DNA of 39,524 nucleotides from Candidatus Doudnabacteria bacterium CG10_big_fil_rev_8_21_14_0_10_41_10. GTDB taxonomy: Bacteria; Patescibacteriota; Doudnabacteria; UBA920; 2-01-FULL-50-11. Under the pieces are notes generated by a model, which worked only from the letters and a program-made list of their open reading frames with translations, ran no database searches and was not told the origin of the DNA. How positions within the stretch are numbered: the first letter of the stretch is position 1; every line of letters starts with the position of its first letter. The stretch is taken from the NCBI GenBank assembly GCA_002773695.1, contig PFAJ01000015.1, positions 1 to 39,524 on the forward strand, in the 5' to 3' direction. This document shows positions 11,662 to 29,764 of this stretch, piece by piece. A program made the translations under genes and the position numbers.

Positions 11662-11753
11662 TGCGGTTTGTTTTTTGCAAGCGAGCTTGACGGTTGGGAA
11701 ACGAAAAGATATTATGACCGGAAGGTGAGAGGAGGATTACGATCGATCTGGAA

Positions 11754-12008
11754 GTGACCTTCCACGCCTATAATGGCAGACTTATCCGTTGCGTGAGGTG
11801 GAAGGGCAGTGTGTTCTTGCACCAGTTAGATTGGAGGGGATGGCATGACTACTATGGTTCAGTATATTCTGCGCATGCCGGAAATAAGCTGACCATACAA
11901 AAGGCGGCCGATTGTCTCGCAGGCATTTTGAAATCAGAGCCGGGTATGGTTGAGCGAGAACGTTTGCTGTATGAGTTCAACTTGAAAGATTTTCTTCTGG
12001 ACGCCTGA
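11754..12008 (+). CDS. Small orphan hypothetical protein (start uncertain)
   Basis: Upstream TTGACG..TATTAT promoter, GGAGG at 11731, downstream hairpin with U tract. Confidence 0.55.
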   Translation: MTFHAYNGRLIRCVRWKGSVFLHQLDWRGWHDYYGSVYSAHAGNKLTIQKAADCLAGILKSEPGMVERERLLYEFNLKDFLLDA

Positions 12009-12107
12009 GCCCAACGCCTCATTACTATGGCGCACGCCTTGCCGACATGGCAGGAGACGGAGTTTTTTTATCACATATATAGAGAAGAAGAGAATAGCCC
12101 TCAAATA

Positions 12108-12170
12108 GGGTCAGGAGCAATTTTCTTCTCTACATATCTACATAGATAAATAGCTCCTGACCCCTTTTCT
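12108..12170. repeat. GGGTCAGGAGC/GCTCCTGACCC inverted pair (REP-like)
   Basis: 12108-12118 is inverted to 12153-12163; TACATAGATAAATAGCTCCTGACCCCTTTT resembles the 1394 unit. Confidence 0.8.
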
Positions 12171-12324
12171 TCACAGACTGAAAAAAATTCCTGATTGTTT
12201 TTTCTTTTTAGGTATATAGATTGATGGAAAGTCCGATCATTATTTATAAATCAAAAAGATTTATCAGGTGAGTCGTAAGATTACAACCATCGCTGAAAAT
12301 ATTAAGTAGTTTTGTTAGGATTTT

Positions 12325-12951
12325 ATGTTAAGCTTACCATTGAATACCCGTAACGGATTGGTTATAGTCGCTCATCCAGATGACGAAACTATTTGGATGG
12401 GAGGGACGATTTTTTCCTTTCCGCAGGTCAACTGGACGATTTTTTCGTTGTGCCGGAGCAGTGATTCCGATCGAGAGCCAAAATATATGCGGGTCTGCTC
12501 GCTCTACCCCGCACGCGGGATTATAACAGATTTAGAGGATGAAGGAATAATGAGCGTAGAAGAAAGCGTCGGTAAAATAAAAAGAATAATCAAAACTGAG
12601 CTGGTAACGAAAAGTTATGATATAATATTCACTCATGGATCCAATGGTGATTATGGCCATCTACGTCATAAAGGTGTTCATCGGGCAGTGACCGATTTGA
12701 TTAAAGCTCGCACCCTTTCCTGTCGGAAGCTTTATTATTTCTCCTATTTCCTTGATTCCAAAAAGAAGATTGCGCTACCCAAAGTTCCCGCGAAATACTT
12801 TATGAACCTACCTCTACCGGTCTGGCAGAAGAAAAAAAATTTAATACATGAAATTTATGGATTTAGCAGAAAATCTTTTGAATATCGAAGCTGTTCTAAA
12901 ATAGAAACTTTTGTTGATTCTAAATATAATGAAAACATTAATACTTTTTGA
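12325..12951 (+). CDS. PIG-L/LmbE-family deacetylase
   Basis: VAHPDDET and THGSNGDYGHLRH motifs. Confidence 0.88.
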   Translation: MLSLPLNTRNGLVIVAHPDDETIWMGGTIFSFPQVNWTIFSLCRSSDSDREPKYMRVCSLYPARGIITDLEDEGIMSVEESVGKIKRIIKTELVTKSYDIIFTHGSNGDYGHLRHKGVHRAVTDLIKARTLSCRKLYYFSYFLDSKKKIALPKVPAKYFMNLPLPVWQKKKNLIHEIYGFSRKSFEYRSCSKIETFVDSKYNENINTF

Positions 12952-14074
12952 TTACCCGCCAACCCCCACAGGGCTTTCTATGCAGGGCGATATGCTTTAT
13001 CGAGGTATGAAAGATAATGGTGAGGAAGTCATGTCATGCAATTTGACTGGCAGTTTGCAAAAGCAATGGTTATATGGTTCATTCAAACCCGATATTGTTG
13101 TTGGAGTTGGGCACTGGGGAGATGTTCCCGACGTGGTAATCCATCCTCAAAAATTTGGTGTAATCCCGGTGCCATGGTTTGTGGCTGATGGCTGGGTGGC
13201 GAATTATCATGATATACTCAGTTCCTTGCCTTTGGCCTTTATTACCAGCGAGTGGGTGAAGACAACTTATGCCCGGGATGGTGTGGATGTTAAGAATTTT
13301 GTAGTTGCTCATATTGGGATTGAACCTGATATTTACAAACCCATTTCAAAATCCGATCCAAGGGTAAAGCTGGTAAGAAACGCACTCGGGATCGCAGATG
13401 ACGAAGCCATGATTTTGACAATCGGCGGGGACGTGACCTCCAAGGGCGCGCAGGAGATGTTTAAAGCTTTAAAAATAGTAAATAAGGATTTCCGAAATTG
13501 GAAATATGTTTGCAAGACTTGGGGAGGAGGATCTTCAATAGACCATCGAGCGGATGAGTTACGGTTAATTGAGGAATTAGGAGACGCAAAGGATCGGGTG
13601 ATTTATCAGCAAGGTTCTTTTTCTCGCGATTTTTTACCTTACTTAATAAATGCCTGTGATATATACGCAGCCCCTAGTCGACTGGATGGGTATGGGATGA
13701 TACAGGTAGAGGCCCAAGCTTGCGGGATCCCAGTAATTTCGATAAATAAAATGGGACCACAAGAAACCATAGTTAATGGTAAGACCGGGTTTTTAGCGCG
13801 AGTTGCAGAGACTGTTGATTTATCAGAAGAGTGGGTTTACGAAGATATGGGATTTGAAAAAAAACATAAAAAAAAATTCGATCGTCCAAAAACCTTTGCC
13901 TATCGGGCGGATGTTGGAGAACTGGCAAATTATTTGATCAGTCTACTCGCCTCCCCAAAGTTACGTGAAGAGATGGGCCGGGCAGGACGTGAACATGTTT
14001 TGTTAAATTTTGAATATCACAAACTTGCGAAAGAAATGACTAAAAAGGTTAAACAACACCTAAATATTTCGTGA
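12929..14074 (+). CDS. GT4-family glycosyltransferase
   Basis: KGAQE, CDIYAAPSRLDGYGMIQVEAQACGIPVI, GKTGFL, REEMGRAGR; start at ATG 12929. Confidence 0.9.
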   Translation: MKTLILFDYPPTPTGLSMQGDMLYRGMKDNGEEVMSCNLTGSLQKQWLYGSFKPDIVVGVGHWGDVPDVVIHPQKFGVIPVPWFVADGWVANYHDILSSLPLAFITSEWVKTTYARDGVDVKNFVVAHIGIEPDIYKPISKSDPRVKLVRNALGIADDEAMILTIGGDVTSKGAQEMFKALKIVNKDFRNWKYVCKTWGGGSSIDHRADELRLIEELGDAKDRVIYQQGSFSRDFLPYLINACDIYAAPSRLDGYGMIQVEAQACGIPVISINKMGPQETIVNGKTGFLARVAETVDLSEEWVYEDMGFEKKHKKKFDRPKTFAYRADVGELANYLISLLASPKLREEMGRAGREHVLLNFEYHKLAKEMTKKVKQHLNIS

Positions 14075-14187
14075 ATAATTTTTAATCGAAAGAAAAATCC
14101 AAGCCAAAAGCCAGGACCGATAATTGTTCTACTATCGATAATAAAAAGTTTTTACTTCGCTAAACCAGAGAAAGCTCACCCGGGTTT

Positions 14188-15321
14188 TTAGAGGAAGAAA
14201 GGAATTTTTTTTTGTTTGAGACAATGATAGGCGAAAAGGTAAGAACCGGCAGACCATCCTTGAAAAGTAACCCCCATAGGTTTTCCGGTTTGGCCACTTA
14301 GCCATTCATTAAATTCCCAGAGCTTGTGTTTCCCCGCTCGATTAGCTAAAGCTAGTTGTTGAAGATTCCGGCCTGCTTTTTTTAGTTGTCCAGTTTTAAC
14401 TAAAGCCGCGATATACCAGCCTCCAATATATGGCCAGATTCCACCGTTAAGATAATGGTGAGGAGTTTTTGCCGCACATTTGGAAAAATAGGAGTGCCAT
14501 TCTTTGTCGTTTGGTTTAATGGGTGGATGTATGGTTTTACAAGGGAAAGGTTTATTGATTTTATTTTTTTCGATGTGTCGCAAGATCCCAAGGGAAATTG
14601 GTCGGGTTGCCAGTCCGGTCACGATTGCAAGAATATTACCAAACGTATCAAACCATGTTCCTTGCTCTCGGTCACCGTCGTGACCCTTCCAAACCCAAGG
14701 AAGGTAATACCCTCTCGTTTTGTCGTAAAGAGAGTTGTATTTTTTACCATTTATAACTTTTTTTATATGTTTTGCAAGGGCCATTTTATCATGTATTTTA
14801 AGCGCGGCATAGTAGAGTGCTAGTGTATTTAATACGCGGCCGTATTTATGGGGAAAAGCGTCTTGCCAGTCCATTGTGGGTTGTTGGACAATCAATTTGT
14901 CTTCGTTGGGGTCTTGATAAGATAACCATGCTAGTGCTTTTTTTAGGCTGGACTGGTATTTGTTGATTAGATTTAAATCGTGGTACTTTTTAGAGTACGC
15001 ATGATGTCCAATTAAATACCATAGCGTGGAGTCAATCGTATTAAAGGTTACATCTGATTGCCTTTCAAGATTATAGTCGCCTACCGCGTTAGGAATTTGT
15101 CCCAAACCCGACTGGTTTTTCGCCAAAGTTACCAAGCTTTTGGCGAAAGGAGTTTTGAATTTTTCCCCAGCTAAAGACGCGCCGATTGAAGTAATCATGC
15201 TATCTCTTGCCCATAGCGCCTCATATCCGCCAGGCAATCCAGACGCACTAAACCCTCGTCGATTAACACAATGTTCTAACACTTTTATTGCTTGTTGATA
15301 GCCTTCTTCTACAACGCTCAT
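14188..15321 (-). CDS. Six-hairpin glycosidase (GH100/debranching-enzyme-like)
   Basis: WARDSMI, IDSTLWY, DWQD, YLNGGIWP, FNEWL, QGWSAG. Confidence 0.85.
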   Translation of the reverse strand: MSVVEEGYQQAIKVLEHCVNRRGFSASGLPGGYEALWARDSMITSIGASLAGEKFKTPFAKSLVTLAKNQSGLGQIPNAVGDYNLERQSDVTFNTIDSTLWYLIGHHAYSKKYHDLNLINKYQSSLKKALAWLSYQDPNEDKLIVQQPTMDWQDAFPHKYGRVLNTLALYYAALKIHDKMALAKHIKKVINGKKYNSLYDKTRGYYLPWVWKGHDGDREQGTWFDTFGNILAIVTGLATRPISLGILRHIEKNKINKPFPCKTIHPPIKPNDKEWHSYFSKCAAKTPHHYLNGGIWPYIGGWYIAALVKTGQLKKAGRNLQQLALANRAGKHKLWEFNEWLSGQTGKPMGVTFQGWSAGSYLFAYHCLKQKKIPFFL

Positions 15322-17552
15322 ATTTTTTCTAGGTGGTCTCTTACTTGTGAATTTTCAAATTCTAGCCTAGCCAAAAGATAGGACAGGGTTGATTCAGCTC
15401 CCTCATTGAGGTTTAAAGAGTATTGTCCCACCCCATCGTGGCAACCGCCCGTAACTTCGTCATAAACCATTTGTTGCAGATTGTTTTTACCGAGAAACCA
15501 GGTGAAGGCCTGATAGGCATTGGTTAAGTGCTTTAATTTTTTTGTAGTTTTGTAAGCGGTAATTTGAGACTGCACCATTGACGCGGTGTCTTCCGGCTGT
15601 TGGTCGTAATAGGATCGGTGTTTACCTTTGGCGTACCAGCCATTTTGTCCGATAGGTGAGTAATGTTTTTTTTTAAAAGTAATATCAGTAAGAAAATTGA
15701 GACTAGTCTGACCGACTTTTAAATATTTTTTTTCACGAGTGATATCGTAAGCAAAAAATAAACACTCCGAGAGTTTGCTGTTGGAATAGGTTAGGTTGTC
15801 TTCAAACCATAGCCATTGAGGAGCCGCCGATTCTTGATATAGTTTGATCTGTTTATCAGCAAGTTTTTTAAAGATTATCAGTAGTTTTTTGTTGGGATAA
15901 TTTTTTAGATAAAAATACAGACCAGACATTGCAAAAGCGATTGCTCGCGGAGCCTTTAGCGCATTTATGGTCACAAGAGATTTTTGGAACAAGTTTTTTG
16001 CCTTAGTCAAAATATTTTTTGGTAAATAATCTTGGGCGGTAAGGTATCCCAAAGCCCAGATTATCCGGCCTTGCGCATCTTCCTCAAAAGTCGTATCTTT
16101 TTTCTTTTTAATACTTACTATGTTGGCAAAACTACCATTGGGTCGTTGAACGAAATGGAGAAAATTTAAATAGGTTTGGATTAAATCTTCCACTTTTTGC
16201 GTGGGTTCGAGTAGATAATATTGGCCGCACACTATCAATGCCCGGGCATTGTCGTCAGCGCTGTAACCAAACCGCAAGTTTGGTTTATCGTAGGTGGCGT
16301 GTTGGATCAGTCCAAACTTATCAGTTAGTTTAACTAAATGGTCAAGTTTTATATCAGGAAACTTTTTTTCTTTTTCGGCAAAATTAGCAATTCGATTGTA
16401 GACATCAAAATATAAAGAGGCGACATTGGGCCAGATCATATGGCGGGTGGAAGCGTAAGCCGCTTGACTCATGGTTTTTAGGAGTTGTTCATTTCCTGCA
16501 AGTTTAGAAATAGCATGGCTGATAGCGCTTGGATTTCTAAATTTAACAAGGATTCCATTTTTATCGTTTATTACCCATTTGGCATATTCAGAGGGCGTAC
16601 TAACAGCAGGCCGACCACAGCCAAGAGCATAAGAAAGAGTTCCACTGACTGATTGGTTTGGATTGAGAGATGGTGAGATATATATATCAGTTGCTTTAAG
16701 GTAGTTAACGAGTTCCTCATATGACAGATATTTATTATAAAATTTTACGTATTTTTTTAAACCCAGAAGTTCAATTTCCCGCACCAAGGAATTACGATAG
16801 GCTTCCCCTTCACGCGACCGTAACACAGGATGAGTGGCGCCAAGTAATAAGTAGATGAGATTCGGATGCTTTTTAATCAATCGGGGCAAGGCTCGGATGA
16901 CATATTGGATCCCTTTGTCCGGACTCAGAAAACCAAAGGTGGTCAATACTAGACGGTTTTTTAGACCAAAATCAGATTTGAAAGAATCGCTTGGATCAAA
17001 AGTGGTCGAAGGAATGCCATGGGGAATAAGAATAATTTTAGATTTTGGTATGGAGTAATTATTTTCAAGCAGAACTTTTGATCGGTGGTTCATGACAATT
17101 ATCGCTTTGCTGTATTTGGCGATTGTTTTAACATTATCTATGATATTTTTTTTGGGTTGAGGAAGGACTGTATGAAAACTGGTAACCACCGGCTTTTTTA
17201 TAACCTGTAGAAAAGGGATTATATAATCACCCCAATTGCCCCCAAAAATTCCAAATTCATGCTGGATGTTAACCAGCTTTATAGGATTAAGCTTGTTAAT
17301 CTCTTGGGCTAAGCTCACATAATGGGAGGCATGATCAGCGGCTATTTGGCCCTGGACAATACCCGGGTAGTTATAAAGACTTGTTTCATTTTCATTGATA
17401 GCTATAACTTTGGATTTTATAGTTGGGTTATAGCGTTTGTTTATCGCTCGACATAAGTCCTGGGTAAAAGTTGCAATGCCACATTCTCTCGGAGGGTAAG
17501 TGCTCAATGATAAAATTATTGTATCGTGAGAACTAGGTTTCTTGATAAGCAT
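15318..17552 (-). CDS. GT4 glycosyltransferase fused to a C-terminal six-hairpin-like domain
   Basis: STYPPRECGIATFT, IQHEFGIFGG, SGTLSYA; C-terminal DDNARAL, DQQP, NEGAESTLSYL. Confidence 0.9.
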   Translation of the reverse strand: MLIKKPSSHDTIILSLSTYPPRECGIATFTQDLCRAINKRYNPTIKSKVIAINENETSLYNYPGIVQGQIAADHASHYVSLAQEINKLNPIKLVNIQHEFGIFGGNWGDYIIPFLQVIKKPVVTSFHTVLPQPKKNIIDNVKTIAKYSKAIIVMNHRSKVLLENNYSIPKSKIILIPHGIPSTTFDPSDSFKSDFGLKNRLVLTTFGFLSPDKGIQYVIRALPRLIKKHPNLIYLLLGATHPVLRSREGEAYRNSLVREIELLGLKKYVKFYNKYLSYEELVNYLKATDIYISPSLNPNQSVSGTLSYALGCGRPAVSTPSEYAKWVINDKNGILVKFRNPSAISHAISKLAGNEQLLKTMSQAAYASTRHMIWPNVASLYFDVYNRIANFAEKEKKFPDIKLDHLVKLTDKFGLIQHATYDKPNLRFGYSADDNARALIVCGQYYLLEPTQKVEDLIQTYLNFLHFVQRPNGSFANIVSIKKKKDTTFEEDAQGRIIWALGYLTAQDYLPKNILTKAKNLFQKSLVTINALKAPRAIAFAMSGLYFYLKNYPNKKLLIIFKKLADKQIKLYQESAAPQWLWFEDNLTYSNSKLSECLFFAYDITREKKYLKVGQTSLNFLTDITFKKKHYSPIGQNGWYAKGKHRSYYDQQPEDTASMVQSQITAYKTTKKLKHLTNAYQAFTWFLGKNNLQQMVYDEVTGGCHDGVGQYSLNLNEGAESTLSYLLARLEFENSQVRDHLEKI

Positions 17553-18576
17553 TATTGTGACGAGATTTTTTTATTTCGGCGATTAGATTTTTGAGTTTTA
17601 CCGAGGCAACAGCAACAGCTCGATCCGCCGCTCCGTAATAGATATACAAATCAGGGCCAAACAAAGCGGTTCCGGTGGGAAAGACCACATTGGAAATCAA
17701 ACCTTTTTTTTCCCATTTTTTTGTAGGTGAAAACAGAGGATCGTGGAGCCGAGCAATTATTTTGCGGGGATTTTTTTTGTCAAGCAGGGCGGCACAAGCG
17801 TGATAAACTCGTCCTTTGTTGTTTTCTTCCACCGTATGAAAAATTAAAAGCCAACCGTCATCGGTGAGCAAAGGTGGACAGCCGCCGCCGATATTTCGAG
17901 ATTCAAACCAGTGCTTATTTTCTAAGATTATGTTTTTTGAAAGGTTTTTTATTTGACCCCGCCAATAGTCAGGAGTAAGCTCATTGAAGTTTTTGAAGAA
18001 AGCTATTTGAATATCAGGAAGGATACGATGGATAAGGGCGTACTGCCCATTGATTTTTTTGGGGAACAAAAACACATCTTTTTCCCAAATCAAGACATTT
18101 TTACCTTCATGGTTTTGATAATACGAGGAGAAGAAATAATAAGAATCTTTTAAAGAAGACTCAGAGAACAGCTTTTCAGCTTCTCGATAGGAAATGAGCG
18201 GGGAAATAATTCCCTGCTTTTTAAATTTTTTTAAATCTGTGCTGGTCGCGTAGGCGGTGACTGCATTTTTTCCATCATGGGCGACGTAAAAAACATAAAA
18301 AGTTTTCCCAACTTTTACTATGCGCGGATCTTCCACCCCGACTTTTTCATAGTCAAACTCCCTTGTCATTATCGGAAATTGTCCGCGCTCAACAACTGTG
18401 GTTGGACCTTTGAGTTTGGCGTAACCGATAGTTGATTTATTTTGTGAATCAATTGCTCTATAAAAAATATGGACGAATTCTCCATCTTTCCAAATACCCG
18501 GGTTTAGGACGCTTTTTTTTTCAAATTCCAGCTCACTTGGTTCGAGAATTACGCCATGTTTTTTGATTTTTAACAT
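17533..18576 (-). CDS. GH130-like glycosidase/phosphorylase
   Basis: VLNPG, GVEDPRI, KDVFLFP, HRI, IGGGCPP, NVVFPTG, YYGAAD. Confidence 0.9.
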   Translation of the reverse strand: MLKIKKHGVILEPSELEFEKKSVLNPGIWKDGEFVHIFYRAIDSQNKSTIGYAKLKGPTTVVERGQFPIMTREFDYEKVGVEDPRIVKVGKTFYVFYVAHDGKNAVTAYATSTDLKKFKKQGIISPLISYREAEKLFSESSLKDSYYFFSSYYQNHEGKNVLIWEKDVFLFPKKINGQYALIHRILPDIQIAFFKNFNELTPDYWRGQIKNLSKNIILENKHWFESRNIGGGCPPLLTDDGWLLIFHTVEENNKGRVYHACAALLDKKNPRKIIARLHDPLFSPTKKWEKKGLISNVVFPTGTALFGPDLYIYYGAADRAVAVASVKLKNLIAEIKKSRHNNAYQET

Positions 18577-19435: not shown

Positions 19436-19849
19436 TTATATCATTTCCTCAGTATTTTTTTCAGATCGGAAAAACTTACCAATTTCCTCCGCCAGGTCTT
19501 CCGTGGTTAAAAAAGCTTTCAAAAAGTAAGATTGGATTTTTAGTGCATTTGCCATATCCTTGTTTTGTTTATCCCAAAGGTTGGTCAAAATAATAACCGG
19601 CACATCGGCAATTTGCTTGTCTTCATTTTCACGGACCAGTTTAAGCATTTCAAAACCGTTCATTTCCGGCATAAGCAAATCTAGCACGACCAAGTCGGGT
19701 TTTTCTCCCAAACATTTTTCGAGGCCGACTTTACCGTTGACCGCGTCAATTACGTCATAGCCTTTAGATTTAAGCTTTTTGACGATGATTGACCTCATCA
19801 TTCCATCATCCTCGACCACCAGAACCTTTTTATTATTTTGATTTTCCAT
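19436..19849 (-). CDS. Single-domain response regulator
   Basis: VVEDD, LDLLMPEMNG, ILTN, conserved Lys. Confidence 0.95.
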   Translation of the reverse strand: MENQNNKKVLVVEDDGMMRSIIVKKLKSKGYDVIDAVNGKVGLEKCLGEKPDLVVLDLLMPEMNGFEMLKLVRENEDKQIADVPVIILTNLWDKQNKDMANALKIQSYFLKAFLTTEDLAEEIGKFFRSEKNTEEMI

Positions 19850-19917
19850 GGTAGAATATAGTGTTTATATTGTATCACAGATTGATTTATATCAAAAATA
19901 ACGATATATTTATTTAA
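19850..19917. promoter_or_regulatory. Divergent, probably leaderless promoters
   Basis: + strand TTGATT (19882)-17 nt-TATATT (19905-19910), 7 nt before ATG 19918; - strand TATATT 5 nt before ATG 19849; no SD on either side. Confidence 0.55.
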
Positions 19918-20961
19918 ATGCATAAAATTAATCGAATGGTTTTTAAAGAGTATGATAAACATCGATCGGTCTTTTATTTTGATCGACCTTCTTTGAATTT
20001 AAAAGTTTTTATCGCGATCCACCGAAACAAAACCATTTTTCCTTCTTTTGGGGCTACAAGAATGATGATGTATGCCAATGAGGATGAGGCGCTCAATGAT
20101 GCTTTGCGGCTGTCACGGTTGATGTCTTACAAATCTGCTTTGGCGGGGTTGAATTATGGCGGGGCAAAAGGAGTGATTTTGTTCGACGGCAATCATCCTG
20201 ACAAATCAGAAGTTTTAAAAATATATTCCGATATGGTCAACGAACTGAAAGGAAAATTTATCACCGGGGCAGATGTCGGTCTTAGCCAGGAAGACGTTCA
20301 ACTAATGACTAGAAATAGTCCATATTTTGTTGGGACAAAAAATAAACCCGAAAAATGCACCGCATTGGGGATTGTTAAGGGCATTGAAGTTTGCTTAAAA
20401 CAGGTTTTTGGTAAAGGATTTATTTCTGACCATACTTTTGCAATTCAAGGGTTAGGCAAGGTAGGTTTGGATTTGTTAGGTTTGATTTATAATCAAGCTG
20501 GTAAAATTTATGTTTCGGATATATCATCAGAAAAAATTGAAGTTGCAAAAAATTTGTATCCGAACATTGTTCCGGTCCCCGTAGAAGATATTTTTAAGTT
20601 GGAGATAGATGTTTTTTGTCCGTGTGCGCTAGCACATGCGATTAGTCCAAAAATGATAGCCGAATTGAAATGCAAGATAGTCGCCGGTGGTGCTAACAAT
20701 CAGTTGTTTAATCAAGAGGTTGGAGATGCATTATTCAGTAAGGGTATTTTGTATGCCCCAGACTATGTGATAAACAGTGGCGGTTTGATCAGCGTTGCTG
20801 ATGAGTATGAAAATCGTTTTAAGAATGAAAATCATATTGAAAAAAAATTGGAACATATTAAATCGGTTCTGGAAACAATTTTTGAACAAAGCCAAACCCA
20901 AAACCTGGCGACTAACCGGGTGGCGGATCGGTTAGCTGAGGATATTTTTAATAATCACTAA
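19918..20961 (+). CDS. Leu/Phe/Val-type amino acid dehydrogenase
   Basis: GATRM, LSRLMSYKSALAGL.YGGAKGVI, TGADVG, IQGLGKVG, PCA, GGANNQL, APDYVINSGG. Confidence 0.92.
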   Translation: MHKINRMVFKEYDKHRSVFYFDRPSLNLKVFIAIHRNKTIFPSFGATRMMMYANEDEALNDALRLSRLMSYKSALAGLNYGGAKGVILFDGNHPDKSEVLKIYSDMVNELKGKFITGADVGLSQEDVQLMTRNSPYFVGTKNKPEKCTALGIVKGIEVCLKQVFGKGFISDHTFAIQGLGKVGLDLLGLIYNQAGKIYVSDISSEKIEVAKNLYPNIVPVPVEDIFKLEIDVFCPCALAHAISPKMIAELKCKIVAGGANNQLFNQEVGDALFSKGILYAPDYVINSGGLISVADEYENRFKNENHIEKKLEHIKSVLETIFEQSQTQNLATNRVADRLAEDIFNNH

Positions 20962-22485
20962 ATGTTGTCGGAAACTTTTCCAAAAGATTTGCAAAATCCG
21001 GTAAATTTGATTGCTCAATTACAAAAACAACCTGAAAAATACTGGCAGGAACGTGGTTTTCTAATGGCAAAGGATTTATTTTGGCAAAAAACTCAACGTG
21101 TCCCCGCTTATAAAAAGTTTTTAGCCGGTCGCAATATTAATCTAAAATTACCTGATACGGTTAGTGATTTTGATAAAATTCCCCCGGTAGATAAAGATAA
21201 TTATTTAAGAAAATATAAAAGAAGTGATTTGTGCTGGGACGGTAATTTTTCAAACCAACATTGGGTGATTTCCACTACCTCTGGTTCTACCGGTAAACCT
21301 TATTATTTTCCCAGACAGGATTTTCAAGACCAACAGTACGCGGTCACTGCAGAACTATATCTTCGGACAAATTTTGAGATCCATAAAAAAAGCACTTTAT
21401 ATATAGTGGCGTTTCCGATGGGGGCTTGGATTGGCGGGCTATTTACTTATCAGGCATTAAAAAATCTTTCCAAAAGAGGCGATTACAGGCTAAGCATTAT
21501 CACTCCCGGTATTAGTACCGCGGACGTTTTAAATGCTTTGCAAAATTTAGGCAAAGATTTTGACCAGGTTATCATCGGCAGTTACGCTCCGTTTTTAAAA
21601 GATATTCTAGACGAAGGGGATCGATTGGGACTGGATTGGAAACAGTATAATTTGGGTTTTGTATTTTCCGCTGAAGGATTTAGTGAGGACTTTCGTGACT
21701 ATGTGGCAAAAAAGACCGGAATTGATAATATTTTTAAAAAAACTCTGAATCATTACGGAACGGTGGATATGGGGACAATGTCTTACGAAACTCCGCTCGC
21801 AATACTTGTTCGAAGGCTTGCTTTAAAAAACCAGAATATTTTTCGCAGGCTTTTCCCCAAAGCCTCAAAATTACCAACTTTAACCCAATATATTCCAGAG
21901 CAGTTTTATTTTGAAGAAGTCGAGGGAAGACTCCTCTGCTCATCGTTTAGCGGTTTACCTTTGGTACGTTATGATTTGAAAGATTCCGGCGGGGTTATTG
22001 GCCTGGAAGAAGTAAAAGAAATTTTTTTGAAAGAAGGGATAGATCTTTCAAATGAAGTTAAGCTCGCTGGAATCTCCGACACTATATGGAACATACCTTT
22101 TGTTTATGTTTACGAACGGACCGATTTTTCAGTTAGTTTTTTTGCTTTCCAAGTCTACCCGGAAACCATCCGAAAAGCGCTTATGGAGGATAAAGCAAGA
22201 GAGTACACTACAGGGAAGTTTACGATGCTGGTTCGGGAAAATGAACAAATGGATCAAGTTTTACAGATAAATATTGAACTTAAAAAAGGGTTTTCAGAGT
22301 CAAACGAAACGGTAAAAGCGTTAACCGAAGAAATTACAAATATATTAACAGCCGAAAATTCTGAATACCGAAAAACGAAAGAAATGTATCCGGAAAAAAC
22401 CGTTCCCGAGATCATATTGTGGCCTTATGAACATGAAAATTTTTTTAAGAGAGGAGTGAAACAAAAATGGATAAAAAACCGATAA
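20962..22485 (+). CDS. Phenylacetate-CoA-ligase-like (PaaK-type ANL) adenylating enzyme
   Basis: TTSGSTGKP loop, SAEG, HYGTVDMG, PLVRYDLKD. Confidence 0.88.
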   Translation: MLSETFPKDLQNPVNLIAQLQKQPEKYWQERGFLMAKDLFWQKTQRVPAYKKFLAGRNINLKLPDTVSDFDKIPPVDKDNYLRKYKRSDLCWDGNFSNQHWVISTTSGSTGKPYYFPRQDFQDQQYAVTAELYLRTNFEIHKKSTLYIVAFPMGAWIGGLFTYQALKNLSKRGDYRLSIITPGISTADVLNALQNLGKDFDQVIIGSYAPFLKDILDEGDRLGLDWKQYNLGFVFSAEGFSEDFRDYVAKKTGIDNIFKKTLNHYGTVDMGTMSYETPLAILVRRLALKNQNIFRRLFPKASKLPTLTQYIPEQFYFEEVEGRLLCSSFSGLPLVRYDLKDSGGVIGLEEVKEIFLKEGIDLSNEVKLAGISDTIWNIPFVYVYERTDFSVSFFAFQVYPETIRKALMEDKAREYTTGKFTMLVRENEQMDQVLQINIELKKGFSESNETVKALTEEITNILTAENSEYRKTKEMYPEKTVPEIILWPYEHENFFKRGVKQKWIKNR

Positions 22486-24683
22486 TTTATGATCCAAAAA
22501 CGGAAACGCTGGAATCATTTAAACAATCGCGCCACATTTCAGAGATTGTTGACCAGTATCGAGAAATGGTTTACGAGCTTTATTCGGTACGGTTTCCAGA
22601 ATCCCGGCTAGATCCTGAAATAAAAACCAAGCAACAACAATTTTACAGCGAGCATTTAGAAAATGCTTTATCTGAATTGGCAGGGGTATGGTTTTATTTT
22701 CCTTGGAATCAAAAATTGGTTCATTATTTAAAAGAGGATTTACATCAAGAGCTGCGAACCGCAAGAAATAAAAATATTGTCACTAAAGCCGAGCAGGAAA
22801 AACTGTACGATTCAACAATTGGGATAGCCGGATTGAGCGTTGGGAGTCACGCGGCGTTAACTTTGGCTTTGTCGGGGATTGGAAAAAGAATGAAACTGGC
22901 TGATCCTGACAATATTTCCGGTTCGAATCTAAATCGAGTACGCAAAGGATTTGGGACAGTCGGTAAAAACAAAGCTTTGCTCACGGCACAGGATATATAC
23001 GAAATCAATCCTTATATGGAAATTGAGATTTTTGAGGAAGGAGTTAATATTGAAAATATCAACAGATTTTTTAATGATCCAACAAAGTTGGATTTATTGG
23101 TTGAGGAGGTTGATGATTTGAGATTGAAGATTTTGTTGAGAGAACAGGCAAAAAAGGAAAACGCTCCGGTAGTTATGGCGACCGATAACGGCGACAATGT
23201 TATTGTTGACATAGAGCGATATGATTTGAACAGCGGTACAAAACTGTTTAATGGTTTGGCTGGTGATATAAATTATCATGATTTTAAAAATTTATCACAA
23301 CGAGAGTTGCCAAAATTATCCACTTTGATTGCTGGAAAAGATTTGGTAGTTCCTAAAATGCAGGACTCTTTGTTAGAAGTTGGCAAGACTCTCTATTCAT
23401 GGCCTCAGCTTGGACTGGCCGCAACTTTATCCGGAGTTGCGGTTGCTTATGTCGCAAAAAAGATATTGCTAAATGAACGAATTCGGGATGGAAAATTGGA
23501 GATTAATTTGGATTCGATTTTTGATCCAGAATACAATTTTCCTGATAAAATAAAATACCGACAACAAAAAATACAAAATTTTCATAAACAAATAGGTATG
23601 GTTGATGATTTATTTGGGTTGTTGCAGGAAATTATTCACAATTCAGTAAATGCCCCGTCAGGTGACAATACCCAGCCGTGGCGTTTTGAATTGGGTAAAA
23701 ATTTCATAAATTTATATAATTTTCCAGATCGTGATAATCCAGTGTTAAACTATGAACAAAGCGGCTCGTATATTGCCCACGGTTGCTTACTTGAGAATTT
23801 ACGATTAAACTGTTTATATGGTGGTTATGAGCCTGAGATCAAACTTTTTCCGGACATCAAACAGCCAAATTTGGTAGCAACGGTAAGTCTGAAAGAAAAA
23901 ACCGAAACTCGAGATGAATTACAAAGTTATATAAAAGATCGTCATACTAATCGGCGGCCATACAATAATCAACCTCTTACCGAGAAACAAAAAACCGAAA
24001 TTAAAAATTGTGTTTTGGAACTGGGATTGGAAGATGGTTATCAGGTTAAGATTGTGGCAGATGAAAAAGAAGTTTATCAACTAGCAAAGACCGCAGCGTC
24101 GGTTGAAGAAGTTATTTTAGAGAATAAAACTACCCACCGATTATTTTTTGATGATATTGTTTGGACCAAAAGAAAAGAGAGCAAGGTGAAATCTGGTTTA
24201 TATCTAGCCACCATGGAATTCGCAGTCCCGCAAAAAGTATTTTTTTGGCTAGCAAGCCACTGGCCGATTATGAAATTGATGAATAGGTTTGGACTATCAC
24301 GATTTATAGCCCGGGAAGACACAAAACTTTACGCAAAAAGTTCAGCGATTTGCGGTGTAGTAATCCCTAGAACCACTCCTGAATCTTATATAAACGCCGG
24401 AAGGATTTTACAAAGAGTTTGGTTAAAGACGGTGAAATTGGGGTTAGCCCTTCATCCTGTGAGCGCTTTGCCATTTGCCGCTAGAAGAGCGCAAGGTTCC
24501 GGTTCAGAAGTTTTTAACAGTTTACATAGAGAGAAAATAACAAAAAATTACGGAGAGCAACTTTCTTTATTTAAAATAACCACAGAATTTGTTGGAATGG
24601 TTTTTCGAGTAGGTTTTGCACAACCTCCTAGCGCAGTTTGCTCAAAAAAAGAAGCACAAATAAAAATAATCTCTGAAAAATAA
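22467..24683 (+). CDS. ThiF/E1-like adenylase fused to a nitroreductase-like domain
   Basis: LRTARN, IAGLSVG, ADPDNISGSNLNR, MATDNGD, SWPQL; then APSGDNTQPWRF, RHTNRRPY, GRILQRVWL..GLALHP. Confidence 0.9.
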   Translation: MDKKPIIYDPKTETLESFKQSRHISEIVDQYREMVYELYSVRFPESRLDPEIKTKQQQFYSEHLENALSELAGVWFYFPWNQKLVHYLKEDLHQELRTARNKNIVTKAEQEKLYDSTIGIAGLSVGSHAALTLALSGIGKRMKLADPDNISGSNLNRVRKGFGTVGKNKALLTAQDIYEINPYMEIEIFEEGVNIENINRFFNDPTKLDLLVEEVDDLRLKILLREQAKKENAPVVMATDNGDNVIVDIERYDLNSGTKLFNGLAGDINYHDFKNLSQRELPKLSTLIAGKDLVVPKMQDSLLEVGKTLYSWPQLGLAATLSGVAVAYVAKKILLNERIRDGKLEINLDSIFDPEYNFPDKIKYRQQKIQNFHKQIGMVDDLFGLLQEIIHNSVNAPSGDNTQPWRFELGKNFINLYNFPDRDNPVLNYEQSGSYIAHGCLLENLRLNCLYGGYEPEIKLFPDIKQPNLVATVSLKEKTETRDELQSYIKDRHTNRRPYNNQPLTEKQKTEIKNCVLELGLEDGYQVKIVADEKEVYQLAKTAASVEEVILENKTTHRLFFDDIVWTKRKESKVKSGLYLATMEFAVPQKVFFWLASHWPIMKLMNRFGLSRFIAREDTKLYAKSSAICGVVIPRTTPESYINAGRILQRVWLKTVKLGLALHPVSALPFAARRAQGSGSEVFNSLHREKITKNYGEQLSLFKITTEFVGMVFRVGFAQPPSAVCSKKEAQIKIISEK

Positions 24684-26375
24684 ATGGAAATTTTTGCGAA
24701 TTTAGATCTGTTTACAGTAGGTTTAACCGTAACCGGGATTGGGGTTTTGGGTTTTTTGGTTTGGTTAACTAACCGTCGGAGTATTACGAATCGGACTTTT
24801 TTTGCTTTTTCTGTGATTACAGTTAGTTGGGGGATTATAAATTATTTAAATTATCAAACCGCCTCCCCGATGGACACTTTATGGCTTTTGAGGATTGTAT
24901 TATTTTTTGCTGTGTTACAAGCCTTTACTCTGTTTCAGTTTATTTATGTTTTTCCTTTGGAACAAGGAAATTTTTCTAAGGCCTATAAATATGGGCTTGT
25001 CCCATTGGTAATTTTTACAGCAATACTGACCCTCACACCAGCGGTGCTTAAAGAAGTCTTGGAAATTTCTTCCACCGGTGGAGCGACCAGAGTACGCAAT
25101 GGAGTTGGTATCGGTTTGTTTGGGTTGGTTAGTGTTGGGTTAGTTTTAGACGGACTTTTAACTTTATACAAGAAAATCCGCATTGCTGTCGGCGTGCAAA
25201 AATCCCAGCTAAAAACTATTGCTTATGGTGTTTCTATTACTTTCGCTTTGATTATCTTTTTTAACTTTTTTCTGCCGGCATTTTTGGACAACGCTCTTTT
25301 TATCCCTTTCGGCGCGGTTTTTATTTTACCTCTAATTCTTTTTACTTATCATGCAATCATTCAACATCATTTTTTGAACGTGAAGGTAATAACTGTAGAA
25401 GTGTTAATAATGGTTTTAGCGGTAACATCTTTCCTTGATGTTTTAATTTCTGAAAGCTTAATCGAGGTTTTGATAAGGGTGGTGACATTTATTTTAGTTT
25501 TAGTTATTGGAGTTTTGTTGATTAAAGGGGTTTTAAAAGAAATTAAACAAAAAAATGAATTGCAAGTTCTTAGCATAAAACTTAAAAGTGCCAACGAGAA
25601 ACTAAAAGAATTGGACCAAGCGCGGGCGGAGTTTATTTCTGTTGTCTCACACCAACTTCGTACGCCGCCCGCCACCCTCAAATGGTATTTAGCCGCTTTG
25701 TTAAGTGGAGATTTCGGGAAAGTCACAGCCGAGCAACTCGATGCCTTGCAAAAAGCCAACATCACCAACAACAATCTTATCTCATTAATAGAGGATATGT
25801 TGAATGTCTCTCGTATCGAGCGTGGTCGGATGGAGTTTGATTTTGTAAAAGGTGATTTAAACAAGCTAATCGAAAGTGTGATTGTTCAGCTAAAACCGCC
25901 GGCAGACGATAAAAAAATAGGTTTGGTTTATAAAAAACCGAAAAAATCTTTACCGGAAGTAGTGATGGACGGTGAAAAGGTAAAGCAGGTAGTAAACAAT
26001 TTGATTGATAATGCTATTAAATATTCGAAATCGGGCAGCATTACAATCGAACTTTCACAAACTAACGAACAAGCGAAGGTTCGAGTTACGGACACCGGTA
26101 AAGGAATTGACCAAAAAGAATTAGAAAATATTTTTTCTAAATATGGCCGGGGAAAAGATTCTAAAAAATACGCTACTGGTTTGGGTTTGGGTTTGTATGT
26201 TGCCAAAATAGTAATAGAACAGCACGAAGGAAAAATTTGGGTGGAAAGTCCGGGACGGGGGAAAGGTTCAACGTTCGCTTTCACCTTACCGATGAAAGTC
26301 GGGGCAAGAGCGGAGAAAAAAGTTTTTAACATGGCTCAAAAAAGCAATTTAACAAAAAAACAACCTTCTGGTTGA
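24684..26375 (+). CDS. Multi-TM (7TM-like) sensor histidine kinase
   Basis: About 280-aa hydrophobic N-terminus; SHQLRTP, NLIDNAIKYS, DTGKGI, GLGLGL, GKGSTF. Confidence 0.95.
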   Translation: MEIFANLDLFTVGLTVTGIGVLGFLVWLTNRRSITNRTFFAFSVITVSWGIINYLNYQTASPMDTLWLLRIVLFFAVLQAFTLFQFIYVFPLEQGNFSKAYKYGLVPLVIFTAILTLTPAVLKEVLEISSTGGATRVRNGVGIGLFGLVSVGLVLDGLLTLYKKIRIAVGVQKSQLKTIAYGVSITFALIIFFNFFLPAFLDNALFIPFGAVFILPLILFTYHAIIQHHFLNVKVITVEVLIMVLAVTSFLDVLISESLIEVLIRVVTFILVLVIGVLLIKGVLKEIKQKNELQVLSIKLKSANEKLKELDQARAEFISVVSHQLRTPPATLKWYLAALLSGDFGKVTAEQLDALQKANITNNNLISLIEDMLNVSRIERGRMEFDFVKGDLNKLIESVIVQLKPPADDKKIGLVYKKPKKSLPEVVMDGEKVKQVVNNLIDNAIKYSKSGSITIELSQTNEQAKVRVTDTGKGIDQKELENIFSKYGRGKDSKKYATGLGLGLYVAKIVIEQHEGKIWVESPGRGKGSTFAFTLPMKVGARAEKKVFNMAQKSNLTKKQPSG

Positions 26376-26393
26376 TAGGCTGTTTTCTTGTTG

Positions 26394-26813
26394 TTATTTA
26401 GGATTTATTAACTTGCCTTCTTTTACCCCCGCTCGTTTTGGCTGTACAATCTTTTGGATTCTTTCAATAAATTCGTCCGGGTCGATACTTTTGTGAAAAT
26501 AATCTACTACCCATTTTTCTTTCGCCCATTGTTCGCCTTCACGAGAAAGATCTTCGTTGGTTAGAAATATGATAGGGATATCTTTCGTCGGCTCTTCTTC
26601 GTGGAGACGCCTGGCGACCGCAAATCCATCTTCGTTGGGCATGCGAATATCAAGCAGTATTAAAGCCGGCTGTAACCGTCTGGCGATTTCTCTTCCGGTG
26701 GGGGAATCGTTAGCATACAATACTTCGTATCCCGCCTTGGAAAGTTTTGCTCCCATAAGCCGTTGAATTACCGGATCGTCGTCGATTAGTAGAATGTGAT
26801 GTTTTGACTCCAT
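26394..26813 (-). CDS. Single-domain response regulator
   Basis: LIDDD, LDIRMPNEDG, FLTN, conserved Lys. Confidence 0.95.
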   Translation of the reverse strand: MESKHHILLIDDDPVIQRLMGAKLSKAGYEVLYANDSPTGREIARRLQPALILLDIRMPNEDGFAVARRLHEEEPTKDIPIIFLTNEDLSREGEQWAKEKWVVDYFHKSIDPDEFIERIQKIVQPKRAGVKEGKLINPK

Positions 26814-28054: not shown

Positions 28055-29764
28055 ATGTACGAATATAAACTTAACCATATAGAGTCTGCTTCGCGCAGCC
28101 CGAACACAAAAATTGAACAAGAAAGCGCTTTTGAAATTGATGCGGCATCCTTTCAAAATGGTGTCACGGATTATTTTAAACTGATTTCTACAAACGAAAA
28201 AAGCGCCAAAGATTTAAAGGTTTACGTAGAAAAATTTTATGATGAACAAAAGATTTCTTCACCTGAAAACAGAGATGCAATACTCGGTTTCGCTGTTGCG
28301 GCGGCTAAACATCGCAATCCCCACATTGTTTTTGAAGTTTTGAAAAAAGAAGGTTTTTTGTCCGATAATCCGGAAAAATTAAATAGATTTTTAGAGTGTC
28401 TCGGCTCTCAAAAAGAGGATTTTCTTCCTGCTTTAGCGAAGGTTAATAATCCTGTAGAACAAAATCTTGGTATAGATGTAGACCCGGAAAAAGAAATTCG
28501 TCAGATATATTTATTTGAACAACTGACAAGGGCGATCCGAGCAAAAAATCCCAGCCAAGCTCATGCAATAGCGGAACAACTGTGCGGTCAAGTCGTGGAC
28601 ATTACCCACGCAACAGATTCATCGAGATTAAAGGCCATTTTACGTTCGGGAGAAATTTGGTCCAGTGAGGGTGGTGGTCATTACTACGGTAACGGGGTTT
28701 ACGCTGGCGTTAACGGTGGTTTTAGACATTGGGGCGATCAAATGATATATTTTAAACAAGTTCCCGCGGAAAAGCTGTTGCCCGTAATAAACGCTAAACA
28801 ACCCATGACAAACATACCGATAGAAAAAATAAAAATAAGCGACCCAAAACGTTTTGACGATATTGACGGACTTTCTCCGGATGATCCTTTTTTCTATTTG
28901 CCTTCAATAATCGAAGCTACGCCAAATCTTGATGAAATGAACAGTTATAGATTTCCCGGTTTTATGGAACCGGTAGATAAAGCAGTTTTAAAACAAATTG
29001 ACAATTTACTCGGCTTGGTGAAAGTTGAAAAAGCCTTCGATGATTTTTATGGAATCTACGATCGGGTTTACGTGCAAGATAAGCGTCCTTTGGTATGCAT
29101 GGCAGTTATGAACTCTTTATATACTGTTGGCGAAATAGTATGGGATGAAAAAACTGAACTGAATGTCGCAGAACCAATAAACCTTGAGGATGAAAAGGAA
29201 GTCAATGTTATTGTTGAACAAATATTGAGTTGTTACGTAACCGAGAGTCGTGATATTGATTCTCCCCATGGCCGACGGCATATAGAGCGGGTTATTGAAA
29301 ATATTAAAATTTTATCGGACGAAATAAAAGCAGATATTAAAACTCGCCATATGGCTATAATAGCTGCCGCCGCGCATGATATTATTCGATATACTCGGGA
29401 CATTTCTCCAAACTGGGCGTCCGCTCTTTGGGTAAAAAGATTATTAAACGGATTGTTGGAACGCCAATCTTTAAAAAAGATACGAGACGCCATTGTTCAA
29501 CATAGTAGTCCAAAAGATGATCGGATTAACGATACTGTCATTACTCAACTTCTTTATGATGCGGATAAAATGGATACGAGAGCGGATAGATTTCATATGC
29601 ATATAAGGGATGAACAATATAATAATGTGTCAGACGGACTATTTGAAGATTATATTGAGATGGTAATGGAGAGCGTTTATTCAAAGGTAGCCCGTGAATA
29701 TTTAGAAGATCTTTTAAAACAGCAAAAACATCGTAAAGAAACGTTGCCTCATAAACAATTTTAG
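28055..29764 (+). CDS. Protein with a central ART-like motif and a C-terminal HD domain
   Basis: THAT..AILRSGEI..YYGNGVY; HGRRHIERV, AAHDI, QHS, YDADKMD. Confidence 0.75.
   Translation: MYEYKLNHIESASRSPNTKIEQESAFEIDAASFQNGVTDYFKLISTNEKSAKDLKVYVEKFYDEQKISSPENRDAILGFAVAAAKHRNPHIVFEVLKKEGFLSDNPEKLNRFLECLGSQKEDFLPALAKVNNPVEQNLGIDVDPEKEIRQIYLFEQLTRAIRAKNPSQAHAIAEQLCGQVVDITHATDSSRLKAILRSGEIWSSEGGGHYYGNGVYAGVNGGFRHWGDQMIYFKQVPAEKLLPVINAKQPMTNIPIEKIKISDPKRFDDIDGLSPDDPFFYLPSIIEATPNLDEMNSYRFPGFMEPVDKAVLKQIDNLLGLVKVEKAFDDFYGIYDRVYVQDKRPLVCMAVMNSLYTVGEIVWDEKTELNVAEPINLEDEKEVNVIVEQILSCYVTESRDIDSPHGRRHIERVIENIKILSDEIKADIKTRHMAIIAAAAHDIIRYTRDISPNWASALWVKRLLNGLLERQSLKKIRDAIVQHSSPKDDRINDTVITQLLYDADKMDTRADRFHMHIRDEQYNNVSDGLFEDYIEMVMESVYSKVAREYLEDLLKQQKHRKETLPHKQF

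Follow-up and report, generated by a model that had tools for sequence, protein, structure and literature searches.

In the window analyzed here, a 39,524-nt contig (PFAJ01000015.1) of Candidatus Doudnabacteria bacterium CG10_big_fil_rev_8_21_14_0_10_41_10 that is contig 54 of a 1.08-Mb, 94%-complete genome, four tightly packed genes encode an amino-acid dehydrogenase, a PaaK-like adenylating ligase, a fusion of a ThiF-like protein with a flavin-dependent oxidase, and a membrane histidine kinase, and the gene of a stand-alone receiver, RR1, diverges from them. The synthesis genes and the kinase recur together across the Candidate Phyla Radiation (CPR), and the enzyme-kinase linkage is among the tightest features of the locus. 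We propose, at a little under an even chance, that this is a CPR-wide operon for the acyltransferase-independent synthesis of an oxazolone-type (azlactone) compound from amino acids, without fatty acyl-coenzyme A (CoA), and that the product would be sensed by the dedicated membrane kinase; both the chemistry and the sensing are deduced from homology and gene context.

The pathway would have four steps. The dehydrogenase would deaminate a hydrophobic or aromatic amino acid to a 2-oxo acid; in other loci an aminotransferase would do the same job, or a tyrosine-ammonia-lyase-like enzyme would yield an arylacrylic acid. The PaaK-like ligase would adenylate the acid and transfer the acyl group directly onto the amine of a second amino acid, so as to form an N-acyl amino acid. 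By homology with TrzS, TyzBC, and OxzB, the ThiF half of the fusion would then adenylate the carboxylate and close the oxazolone ring, and the oxidase half would desaturate it. Finally, as gene context suggests, the hydrophobic product may enter the membrane and be bound by the nine-helix sensor of the translationally coupled kinase, which may in turn alter the phosphorylation of RR1.

Organization of the Operon

The features of the region are as follows (window coordinates).

19436-19849, minus strand: RR1, stand-alone receiver of 137 aa, divergent from the operon (PF00072, 68.4 bits)
19850-19917, no strand: divergent intergenic region of 68 bp, probable promoter region for the operon and RR1 (read from the sequence)
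19918-20961, plus strand: amino-acid dehydrogenase of 347 aa, Leu/Phe/Trp-type, NAD(P) (PF02812 and PF00208)
20962-22485, plus strand: PaaK-like ANL adenylating ligase of 507 aa (PF14535, profile, and fold)
22467-23606, plus strand: ThiF-like adenylating/cyclizing half of the fusion (PF00899, 70.7 bits, residues 103-238)
23616-24683, plus strand: flavin-dependent oxidase half of the fusion, nitroreductase-superfamily, Acg-like (NCBIfam Acg-family model)
24684-25553, plus strand: nine-helix membrane sensor region of the kinase, HisKA_7TM type with two further helices (PF16927 in orthologs, AlphaFold2 model)
25554-26375, plus strand: kinase core, HisKA at residues 313-381 (H323) and HATPase_c at 429-538 (PF00512, PF02518)
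26394-26813, minus strand: RR2, second stand-alone receiver, convergent with the kinase (PF00072, 74.3 bits)

All six open reading frames (ORFs) listed for 19436-26813 lie where a first-pass annotation, made from the sequence alone, had placed them. The close packing that it described, with TAA-ATG junctions and a 19-nt overlap, is borne out: the stop codon of the dehydrogenase gene abuts the start codon of the ligase gene (cacTAAATG, 20959-20964), the ThiF-oxidase and kinase genes are joined in the same manner (aaaTAAATG, 24681-24686), and the ligase and ThiF-oxidase genes share 19 nt (22467-22485). Its domain identities (amino-acid dehydrogenase, PaaK-like ligase, ThiF-nitroreductase fusion, and multi-TM histidine kinase) likewise agree with Pfam and NCBIfam. 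On the plus strand, promoter-like matches (9/12) are found at 19843-19871 and 19882-19910; in the scan as a whole such matches were not above chance (28 vs. 22.3 +/- 5.0 in shuffled sequences), and neither was the number of terminators (9 vs. 8.0 +/- 3.1).

Conservation of the Enzyme-Kinase Linkage

A survey of enzyme-kinase neighborhoods, set beforehand as the refuting test of a link between synthesis and sensing, found that linkage conserved at every scale surveyed. Among 61 genomes of the same order, the ligase profile was found in 18 and the ThiF-oxidase query in 19, one of them with a weak ThiF paralog alone. The kinase sensor region was detected at E ≤ 1e-20 in exactly the 18 ligase genomes, always adjoining the enzymes, and 10 further genomes gave only weak matches (E 8e-12 to 5e-4). 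In all 17 loci fetched from related genomes the ligase, ThiF, and kinase genes occur in the same order; the oxidase was called in 16, and the seventeenth has a fragment at a contig edge.

A species-level pattern scan with one genome per species returned at least 600 candidate stretches, with relatives of the ligase in at least 587 species genomes. The best 80 of these, nearly all labeled CPR, were taken as further loci. According to the record titles as deposited they come from many CPR lineages, among them Gottesman-, Magasanik-, Yanofsky-, Lipton-, Wildermuth-, Kaiser-, Wolfe-, Adler- and Vogelbacteria, from Paceibacteria and "Saccharibacteria," or from records without a lineage in the title, and two are labeled "uncultured Gammaproteobacteria." With two duplicates dropped (L106 is the same contig as L018), 96 loci were available, of which 63 are well covered, with sequence extending ≥3 kb upstream of the ligase and ≥6 kb downstream; ORF calling was mechanical in all locus surveys. 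All 63 have ThiF, 59 have the oxidase, and 57 have the kinase sensor. Where a kinase ORF was called, it lies downstream of the ligase on the same strand in 75/76 loci, and the gene preceding it is the oxidase, ThiF, the ligase, or a conserved ORF named c14 in 68/76, at a median gap of 9 bp (≤100 bp in 64/68). The synthesis genes and the membrane kinase are thus conserved as one apparent transcription unit. The same gene set in the same order in 17/17 related loci and in most of the 80 CPR loci places the operon far beyond chance. The c14 ORF (~310 aa) stands between oxidase and kinase in seven loci, e.g., L043:9830-10876(+); it has no family match and gave only faint methyltransferase hints (E 0.04-0.25). 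In another locus (L099, about 11700-16600), three kinases of the HisKA_7TM family follow the enzyme genes in tandem.

In an even sample of 301 genomes from the phylum, 34 have the ligase (one by a weak partial match), and a 7TM kinase lies on the same contig within 7 kb in 31 of the 33 strong cases (place lists compared by eye). The two exceptions are G105, where a contig end intervenes, and G143, which has no adjacent kinase. The first-pass annotation had called such a pathway unexpected in this lineage, a remark that needs tempering, as the pathway genes are common in CPR genomes.

Deaminating Enzymes and the Probable Acid

The window dehydrogenase has both ELFV domains (PF02812, 67.6 bits; PF00208, 63.3 bits). 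Its nearest solved relatives are a leucine dehydrogenase (3vpx, 234 bits) and a tryptophan dehydrogenase (5b37, 225 bits), against ≤69 bits for glutamate dehydrogenases, and the NCBIfam ScyB model gave 285 bits vs. an equivalog cut-off of 600. By this kinship the enzyme probably turns some hydrophobic or aromatic amino acid into the 2-oxo acid, with leucine and tryptophan dehydrogenases scoring alike and the ScyB cut-off missed.

Across the 96 loci, the slot before the ligase, where recognized, is filled by one of three unrelated families that remove an alpha-amino group: an ELFV dehydrogenase (36/96), a class I/II aminotransferase (PF00155, 198-229 bits; 17/96), or an aromatic amino-acid ammonia-lyase (PF00221, 497 bits in the copy scanned; 7/96). 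The best NCBIfam model for the six lyases scanned was FlxA, the flexirubin tyrosine ammonia-lyase (577-639 bits, cut-off 700), with HutH, histidine ammonia-lyase, at 428-480 bits. Among the 17 related loci, the 16 with their upstream side present carry a dehydrogenase (10, plus 1 fragment) or a lyase (6), and a recognizable deaminating enzyme occurs in 47/63 well-covered loci. In a maximum-likelihood tree of the 96 ligases, all seven lyase-linked ligases form one clade (SH-aLRT 95), and the dehydrogenase- and aminotransferase-linked ligases are interleaved, with L109 (aminotransferase) sister to L077 (dehydrogenase) at a support of 100. Such interleaving fits what would be expected if dehydrogenase and aminotransferase supply the same class of acid (2-oxo acids) and the lyase another (arylacrylates). 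The lyase-ligase association is a single evolutionary event and hence carries little statistical weight.

Deamination of an amino acid followed by ligation of the acid is also the start of known aromatic acid catabolism, and the ligase profile matches PaaK. The genes could therefore be read as ordinary catabolism, a branch of phenylalanine or leucine degradation with a PaaK-type CoA ligase that happens to lie beside an unrelated two-component system. We find this hardly credible: the operon holds no further catabolic genes, an arylacrylate-forming lyase can stand in for the dehydrogenase, the ligase is joined to ThiF in every well-covered locus and is sometimes fused to it, and the genome is small, with no dephospho-CoA kinase (CoaE) found in it.

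The PaaK-Like Ligase and Proposed Formation of the Amide

The window ligase is very divergent. By itself it matches only PF14535 (AMP-binding_C_2; 25.2 bits, cut-off 25), with a marginal match to PaaK, and the AMP-binding core PF00501 was not detected in it and appeared in only 2/18 orthologs (E 0.19). A profile of 18 orthologs searched against the Protein Data Bank (PDB) found PaaK (2y4o, E 6.9e-17). The AlphaFold2 model of the ligase (pLDDT 87.3) gave PaaK1 and PaaK2 as its top Foldseek matches (E 1.9e-21 to 7e-19, PaaK1 the best at 1.9e-21), with further matches to BT_0428, to 2-hydroxyisobutyryl-CoA ligase (HCL), and to ClxA. TM scores of 0.54-0.69 across the PaaK and BT_0428 matches point to an ANL two-domain fold with a PaaK-type N-terminal region. 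With the PaaK family (2y27, 2y4o; ClxA, 9s45; AjiA1, 6wuq; "PaaK-like ligase," 6siw) the window protein shares this fold, the N-terminal profile, and a TSGSTGKP-type phosphate loop; unlike these ligases, it is ~70 residues longer, has 13-17% identity in structural alignment, and yields no PF00501 match. Identity as a GH3-type amido synthetase was considered and is not supported: the fold matches listed are PaaK-type or other ANL proteins, with no GH3 among them. The profile and fold neighbors also include ClxA, AjiA1, "PaaK-like ligase," and the amide bond synthetase McbA, some of which we take to couple acids without CoA.

No acyltransferase was found among the operon genes by ORF listing and domain scan, as the first-pass annotation had said, and neither PF13444 (N-acyl amino acid synthase) nor CoaE (PF01121) was found in the 94%-complete genome; a single GNAT match lies on another contig. 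In other genomes the ligase is fused to ThiF (P0120, 889 aa, from a Liptonbacteria record; P0121, 901 aa), and one lyase-ThiF fusion occurs (P0044, 924 aa). Because the operon has no acyltransferase, PF13444 and CoaE were not found, and ligase-ThiF fusions exist, direct amide formation by the ligase would be the simplest route to the N-acyl amino acid that ThiF-oxidases use. The earlier suggestion that dehydrogenase and ligase together replace an acyltransferase thus gains from the three non-homologous deaminating enzymes, the fusions, and the missing PF13444, with the amide-forming step itself still a deduction.

The ThiF-Oxidase Fusion and Known Oxazolone Synthases

The NCBIfam model of the Rv1355c family (NF005901) spans residues 12-729 of the fusion at 452.4 bits. 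The oxidase half matches the Acg family FMN-binding oxidoreductase model (NF047509) over residues 389-667 (140.6 bits, below the cut-off of 199), with weak matches to PF14512 and PF00881, and the ThiF half begins with an N-terminal extension of ~95 aa that is typical of the Rv1355c type. We aligned 17 sequences: CPR homologs that are also fused, named members of the Rv1355c family (Algoriphagus, Polyangium, Saccharothrix, and Umezawaea), and ThiF-oxidase proteins of lesser length. Thirty positions, in the ThiF nucleotide site and the oxidase motifs, are invariant, and the window protein keeps all of them; they include R100, N101, G122, G126, D146, D148, N154, N156, R157, K169, D209, and D216 in the ThiF half and P397, N401, Q403, P404, R492, R496, R650, W652, and R714 in the oxidase half. 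The window fusion also has the N-terminal extension and an insert, both of which are confined to the Rv1355c type in this alignment. In all 17 related loci ThiF and oxidase are separate genes, so that the window fusion is an exception there; fused homologs occur elsewhere (P0005-P0010, L030). The oxidase is very divergent in some loci (21-27% identity). Two other proteins (P0082, P0084), one of them from Gordonia polyisoprenivorans, have a ThiF of this family fused to a GGDEF diguanylate cyclase domain.

Rv1355c is TrzS, which has been shown to cyclize N-acyl tryptophan in vitro with ATP and to desaturate it with O2 to give N-acyl tryptazolone (PMC12856293). Like TrzS of the TrzAS system (Rv1356c/Rv1355c, Mycobacterium tuberculosis and relatives), the window protein combines an N-terminal extension, a ThiF-like cyclase, and a fused flavin-dependent oxidase, and the family model matches it end to end. 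Unlike TrzAS, the window operon has no TrzA-type N-acyltransferase; a deaminating enzyme and a PaaK-like ligase precede the fusion and a membrane kinase follows it, and the majority of CPR loci encode the two halves separately. OxzAB of Pseudoalteromonas rubra and TyzACB of M. tuberculosis are likewise described, in the parts of the oxazolone literature available, as a ThiF-type cyclodehydratase and a nitroreductase-superfamily oxidase acting on an acylated amino acid. There the acyl group comes from acyl-CoA through an N-acyltransferase, and neither kinases nor ligases of this kind are mentioned in those parts. The ThiF-oxidases of that length class (650-670 aa) also lack the extension and insert of the window protein.

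A different chemistry is conceivable, in which the ligase makes a CoA thioester for an unlinked acyltransferase, or ThiF and oxidase act on another carboxylate, so that the product would not be a 2,4-substituted oxazolone. Its support comes from the CoA ligases that head the ligase's structural neighbors, from a fusion score under the Rv1355c cut-off together with the very divergent oxidases of some loci, and from the one GNAT match elsewhere in the genome. We consider it quite unlikely, given that PF13444 and CoaE were not found, that the invariant ThiF and oxidase residues of named Rv1355c-family proteins are kept, and that ligase-ThiF fusions argue for consecutive steps; enzymes that couple without CoA (ClxA, AjiA1, McbA) are also among the PaaK-like neighbors. 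A reading of ThiF and oxidase as modifying a ribosomally synthesized peptide was also considered and is unlikely, because the alternating deaminating enzymes point to free amino acids and because junctions of 0 and -19 nt leave no room for a precursor gene.

The Sensor Kinase and the Nearby Receivers

The kinase core is above cut-off in both domains (PF00512, 40.2 bits; PF02518, 98.6 bits), and about 290 hydrophobic residues precede HisKA as the sensor region. H323 and the G-box residues are invariant in 17 orthologs. The H-box (window 25644-25691, kinase residues 321-336) is unusual: it reads SHQ(L/M)RTPP..(I/L)KW in 14/17 orthologs, and the canonical SHQLRTPLTAIKG is found in L017, L023, and L029. 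PF16927 (HisKA_7TM) was matched by 8 of the 9 orthologous N-termini scanned, 6 of them above the 28.6-bit cut-off. The window kinase gave no match to it even at E ≤ 10; it is 33-50% identical to its orthologs, 40-50% to most, and orthology is clear.

Nine long helices, together with a beta hairpin at 122-139, are seen in the AlphaFold2 model of the sensor (pLDDT 80.8), and hydropathy with the positive-inside rule predicts an N-out, C-in topology. What had been described as a 7TM kinase is therefore a multi-TM histidine kinase as stated, with nine predicted helices and not seven. R70 and E239 are invariant within predicted helices 3 and 8, respectively, and K234, just before helix 8 by hydropathy, is nearly so. 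A Foldseek search of the sensor model against the PDB returned 0 matches at E ≤ 0.001; the weak top matches, to eukaryotic G protein-coupled receptors (E 8e-3 and above, TM about 0.5), probably reflect a generic likeness of helix bundles. Compared with HisKA_7TM kinases of archaea and bacteria, whose Pfam model its orthologs match full length, the window kinase differs in its two extra helices after the seven and in having a consistent genetic partner. In the excerpts of the literature available, HisKA_7TM appears as a sensor domain with no ligand named.

In CqsA/CqsS, LqsA/LqsS, PhcB/PhcS, and LuxM/LuxN, a small-molecule synthase gene lies beside the gene of a kinase that senses through a bundle of membrane helices and lacks any large external domain, an arrangement that suits hydrophobic ligands. 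The window operon resembles these autoinducer systems in layout, the one respect in which we liken them; it differs in its HisKA_7TM-type sensor with nine helices, in receivers that have no DNA-binding output, and in its chemistry.

The first-pass annotation had placed a receiver on each side of the operon. Both ORFs are indeed Response_reg alone, but only RR1 is conserved. A homolog of RR1 (40-54% identity) lies near the cluster in 9/17 related loci, a receiver match occurs within 9.5 kb in 26/63 well-covered loci, and RR1 probably accepts the phosphoryl group from the kinase. A search of the 17 related loci with RR2 brought up only the RR1 homologs (26-34% identity) and no separate counterpart of RR2, whose membership in the system is doubtful. 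The genome has in total three HisKA kinases and five receivers (contigs C41, C45, and C54), all five in open frames of 120-157 residues and thus stand-alone, without an output domain. A TrmB-type helix-turn-helix regulator (PF01978, cluster c11) recurs near the cluster (9 proteins in 8 loci, e.g., L013:5273-6055(+)) and might serve as a transcriptional output partner.

Unsaturated oxazolones are conjugated and electrophilic. It is thus conceivable that the product is a prosthetic ligand or chromophore of the kinase, a 4-arylidene-oxazolone that would lodge in the helix bundle, or react with it, to make a light or redox sensor. The obligate pairing of synthesis genes with a receptor would fit this, as would the invariant charged residues within the helices (R70, E239) and the nearly invariant K234. 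We nevertheless judge it very improbable: no evidence is specific to a chromophore, related kinases pair with chemically unrelated enzymes, and the 16 DNA sequencing runs that contain this sequence (there were no RNA runs among those found) are labeled groundwater/aquifer, i.e., dark.

Partners of HisKA_7TM Kinases in Ligase-Negative Genomes

Fifty kinase loci of ligase-negative genomes were sampled by working down a ranked list from its top and passing over contig-edge cases; they form a first set of ten and another 40. Two of the first ten (L111, L113) have a divergent ThiF and oxidase without the ligase. UbiA prenyltransferases were found in two and methyltransferases in two; one further locus has an AMP-ligase with a weak GNAT and a methyltransferase, and one a PlsC acyltransferase with a ThiF/Rossmann protein. 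In L120 the nearest co-directional upstream ORF is a pyridoxal phosphate-dependent Orn/DAP/Arg-type decarboxylase, behind a divergent 197-aa ORF. In L112 a 208-aa protein directly upstream of the kinase matches Autoind_synth (PF00765, 43 bits), Acetyltransf_5 (PF13444), and FeeM; this LuxI/N-acyl-amino-acid-synthase-like gene lies at 9810-10433(-) and the kinase at 8101-9720(-).

Among the other 40, a co-directional ORF ends ≤160 bp before the kinase start in 31. These 31 ORFs include 5 class I methyltransferases, 3 class I/II aminotransferases (two preceded by an AMP-ligase), 3 matches to FeeM at E ≤ 1e-3, 2 pyruvoyl-type decarboxylases, 1 ThiF protein, and 1 UbiA protein, and six cluster by BLAST with the synthase-like protein of L112. 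The aminotransferase-family proteins (~410-420 aa, class I/II) end 1 bp before a HisKA_7TM kinase in L160:327-3402(-), L161:317-3389(-), and L140:2329-3555(+), with an AMP-binding ligase ahead in L160 and L161, a layout that we take to resemble CqsA/CqsS. In the ligase-less loci L111 and L113, an unannotated ORF of 341-355 aa stands beside ThiF (L111:12217-13281(-), L113:4193-5215(-)). The 355-aa ORF of L111 matches nothing in Pfam or NCBIfam and does not resemble the synthase-like protein of L112 by BLASTP; protein-atlas features place the L111/L113 ORFs at 0.86-0.88 to GNAT/FeeM-like clusters, which is merely a lead.

This survey suggests that an enzyme modifying amino acids or lipids is the general partner of HisKA_7TM kinases. 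A tentative generalization, well short of an even chance in our view, is that they are CPR-wide receptors for self-made, amino-acid-derived, membrane-soluble signals, the oxazolone product being one "dialect" among several and each cassette being translationally coupled to its own kinase. Other dialects would then be made by the cassettes with LuxI/N-acyl-amino-acid-synthase-like proteins, methyltransferases, a ligase plus class I/II aminotransferase, pyruvoyl decarboxylases, or prenyltransferases. A bolder extension, with a conjugated oxazolone as kinase-bound chromophore, is less likely.

The same observations bear on the main rival to the proposed pathway, which keeps its chemistry. Here the enzymes would yield a metabolite that resides in the membrane or serves in defense (an N-acyl dehydro-amino-acid or an oxazolone lipid analogue). 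The kinase would only be co-regulated with them, monitoring the envelope or lipids from within the membrane and not binding the product as a signal. Tyrazolones and tryptazolones are reported mainly from cell fractions, and N-acyl tyrosine derivatives as antimicrobial (PMC12856293, PMC10404671). The sensor, moreover, has no sizeable extracytoplasmic domain, just the hairpin at 122-139; related kinases also stand behind lipid-type enzymes (UbiA prenyltransferase, PlsC acyltransferase); and most of the genomes with a HisKA_7TM kinase are without these enzymes. Against it, the kinase is adjacent to the enzymes in most well-covered loci at a gap of a few base pairs and is lost jointly with them, which is tighter than usual for a general stress sensor, and among relatives the orthologous kinase never occurs without the enzymes. 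Hence we hold this rival to be unlikely, though to be taken seriously.

Points That Weigh Against Synthesis and Sensing of an Oxazolone

Several findings count against the proposal that the operon makes an oxazolone and that its kinase senses it. A kinase that did no more than share regulation with the enzymes would be just as likely to be co-transcribed with them, and since related genomes share ancestry, the locus counts given above are not counts of independent events. Six of the 63 well-covered loci have no 7TM kinase match in the stretch (L030 still has a kinase core, and L091 is cut at its end), and 16 of the 63 have no recognizable deaminating enzyme. The kinase family is wider than the enzymes (126/301 vs. 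34/301 phylum genomes), so that the sensor is not exclusive to this chemistry, and the kinase-locus survey was made without a control set of unrelated kinases and gives no strength of enrichment. On the chemical side, the nearest solved relatives of the ligase (PaaK, BT_0428, HCL) are CoA ligases, the fusion is 24 bits short of the Rv1355c family cut-off (452.4 vs. 476), and it is 25-31% identical to the named members of that family.

Novelty and Implications

ThiF-oxidase oxazolone synthases and synthase-plus-kinase layouts are already known kinds of systems. As far as we have seen, what is new is that the two are combined, that the acyl group would be supplied without an acyltransferase, and that the system is spread across the CPR. 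Our literature searches listed no paper on the cluster; the taxon lists of two papers on oxazolones (PMC12856293, Fig. S1; PMC10404671, Table S1) might hold CPR sequences.

In the papers that first described OxzAB, TyzACB, and TrzAS, the physiological role of these natural oxazolones is left open and signaling is merely suggested (PMC12856293, PMC10404671). The present locus bears on that role, as hundreds of genomes link a synthase of this type genetically to a receptor-like kinase, and it offers a candidate receptor for molecules whose role is still unassigned. It also addresses the question of whether CPR bacteria, with genomes of ~1 Mb and little biosynthesis, make and sense small molecules of their own. 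As the acyl group would come from an amino acid, the pathway looks suited to cells in which pools of fatty-acyl-CoA may be absent. The operon predicts a new, CoA-independent route to N-acyl amino acids that uses a PaaK-like ligase, as well as new oxazolones with 2-oxoacyl or cinnamoyl substituents, and the question of which ligand a HisKA_7TM sensor domain binds becomes testable. Were the broader dialect idea true, it would describe the first cell-cell or symbiont-host chemical language in ultra-small bacteria, signaling would be the role of natural oxazolones, and HisKA_7TM domains would have their first ligand class.

Other Features of the Window

A bacterial 16S rRNA gene, truncated at its 5′ end, occupies positions 1-1190 of the window (Rfam, 1162 bits). 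No 23S or further Rfam family was found anywhere else in the 39.5-kb window, and the rRNA genes therefore appear unlinked. Two genes 3′ of the operon lies a 569-aa ORF (28055-29764) without a Pfam or NCBIfam match. Upstream of RR1, on the minus strand (15318-18576), there is a 20-nt overlap between the gene of a GT4-type glycosyltransferase (744 aa) and a GH130 mannoside phosphorylase-like gene.

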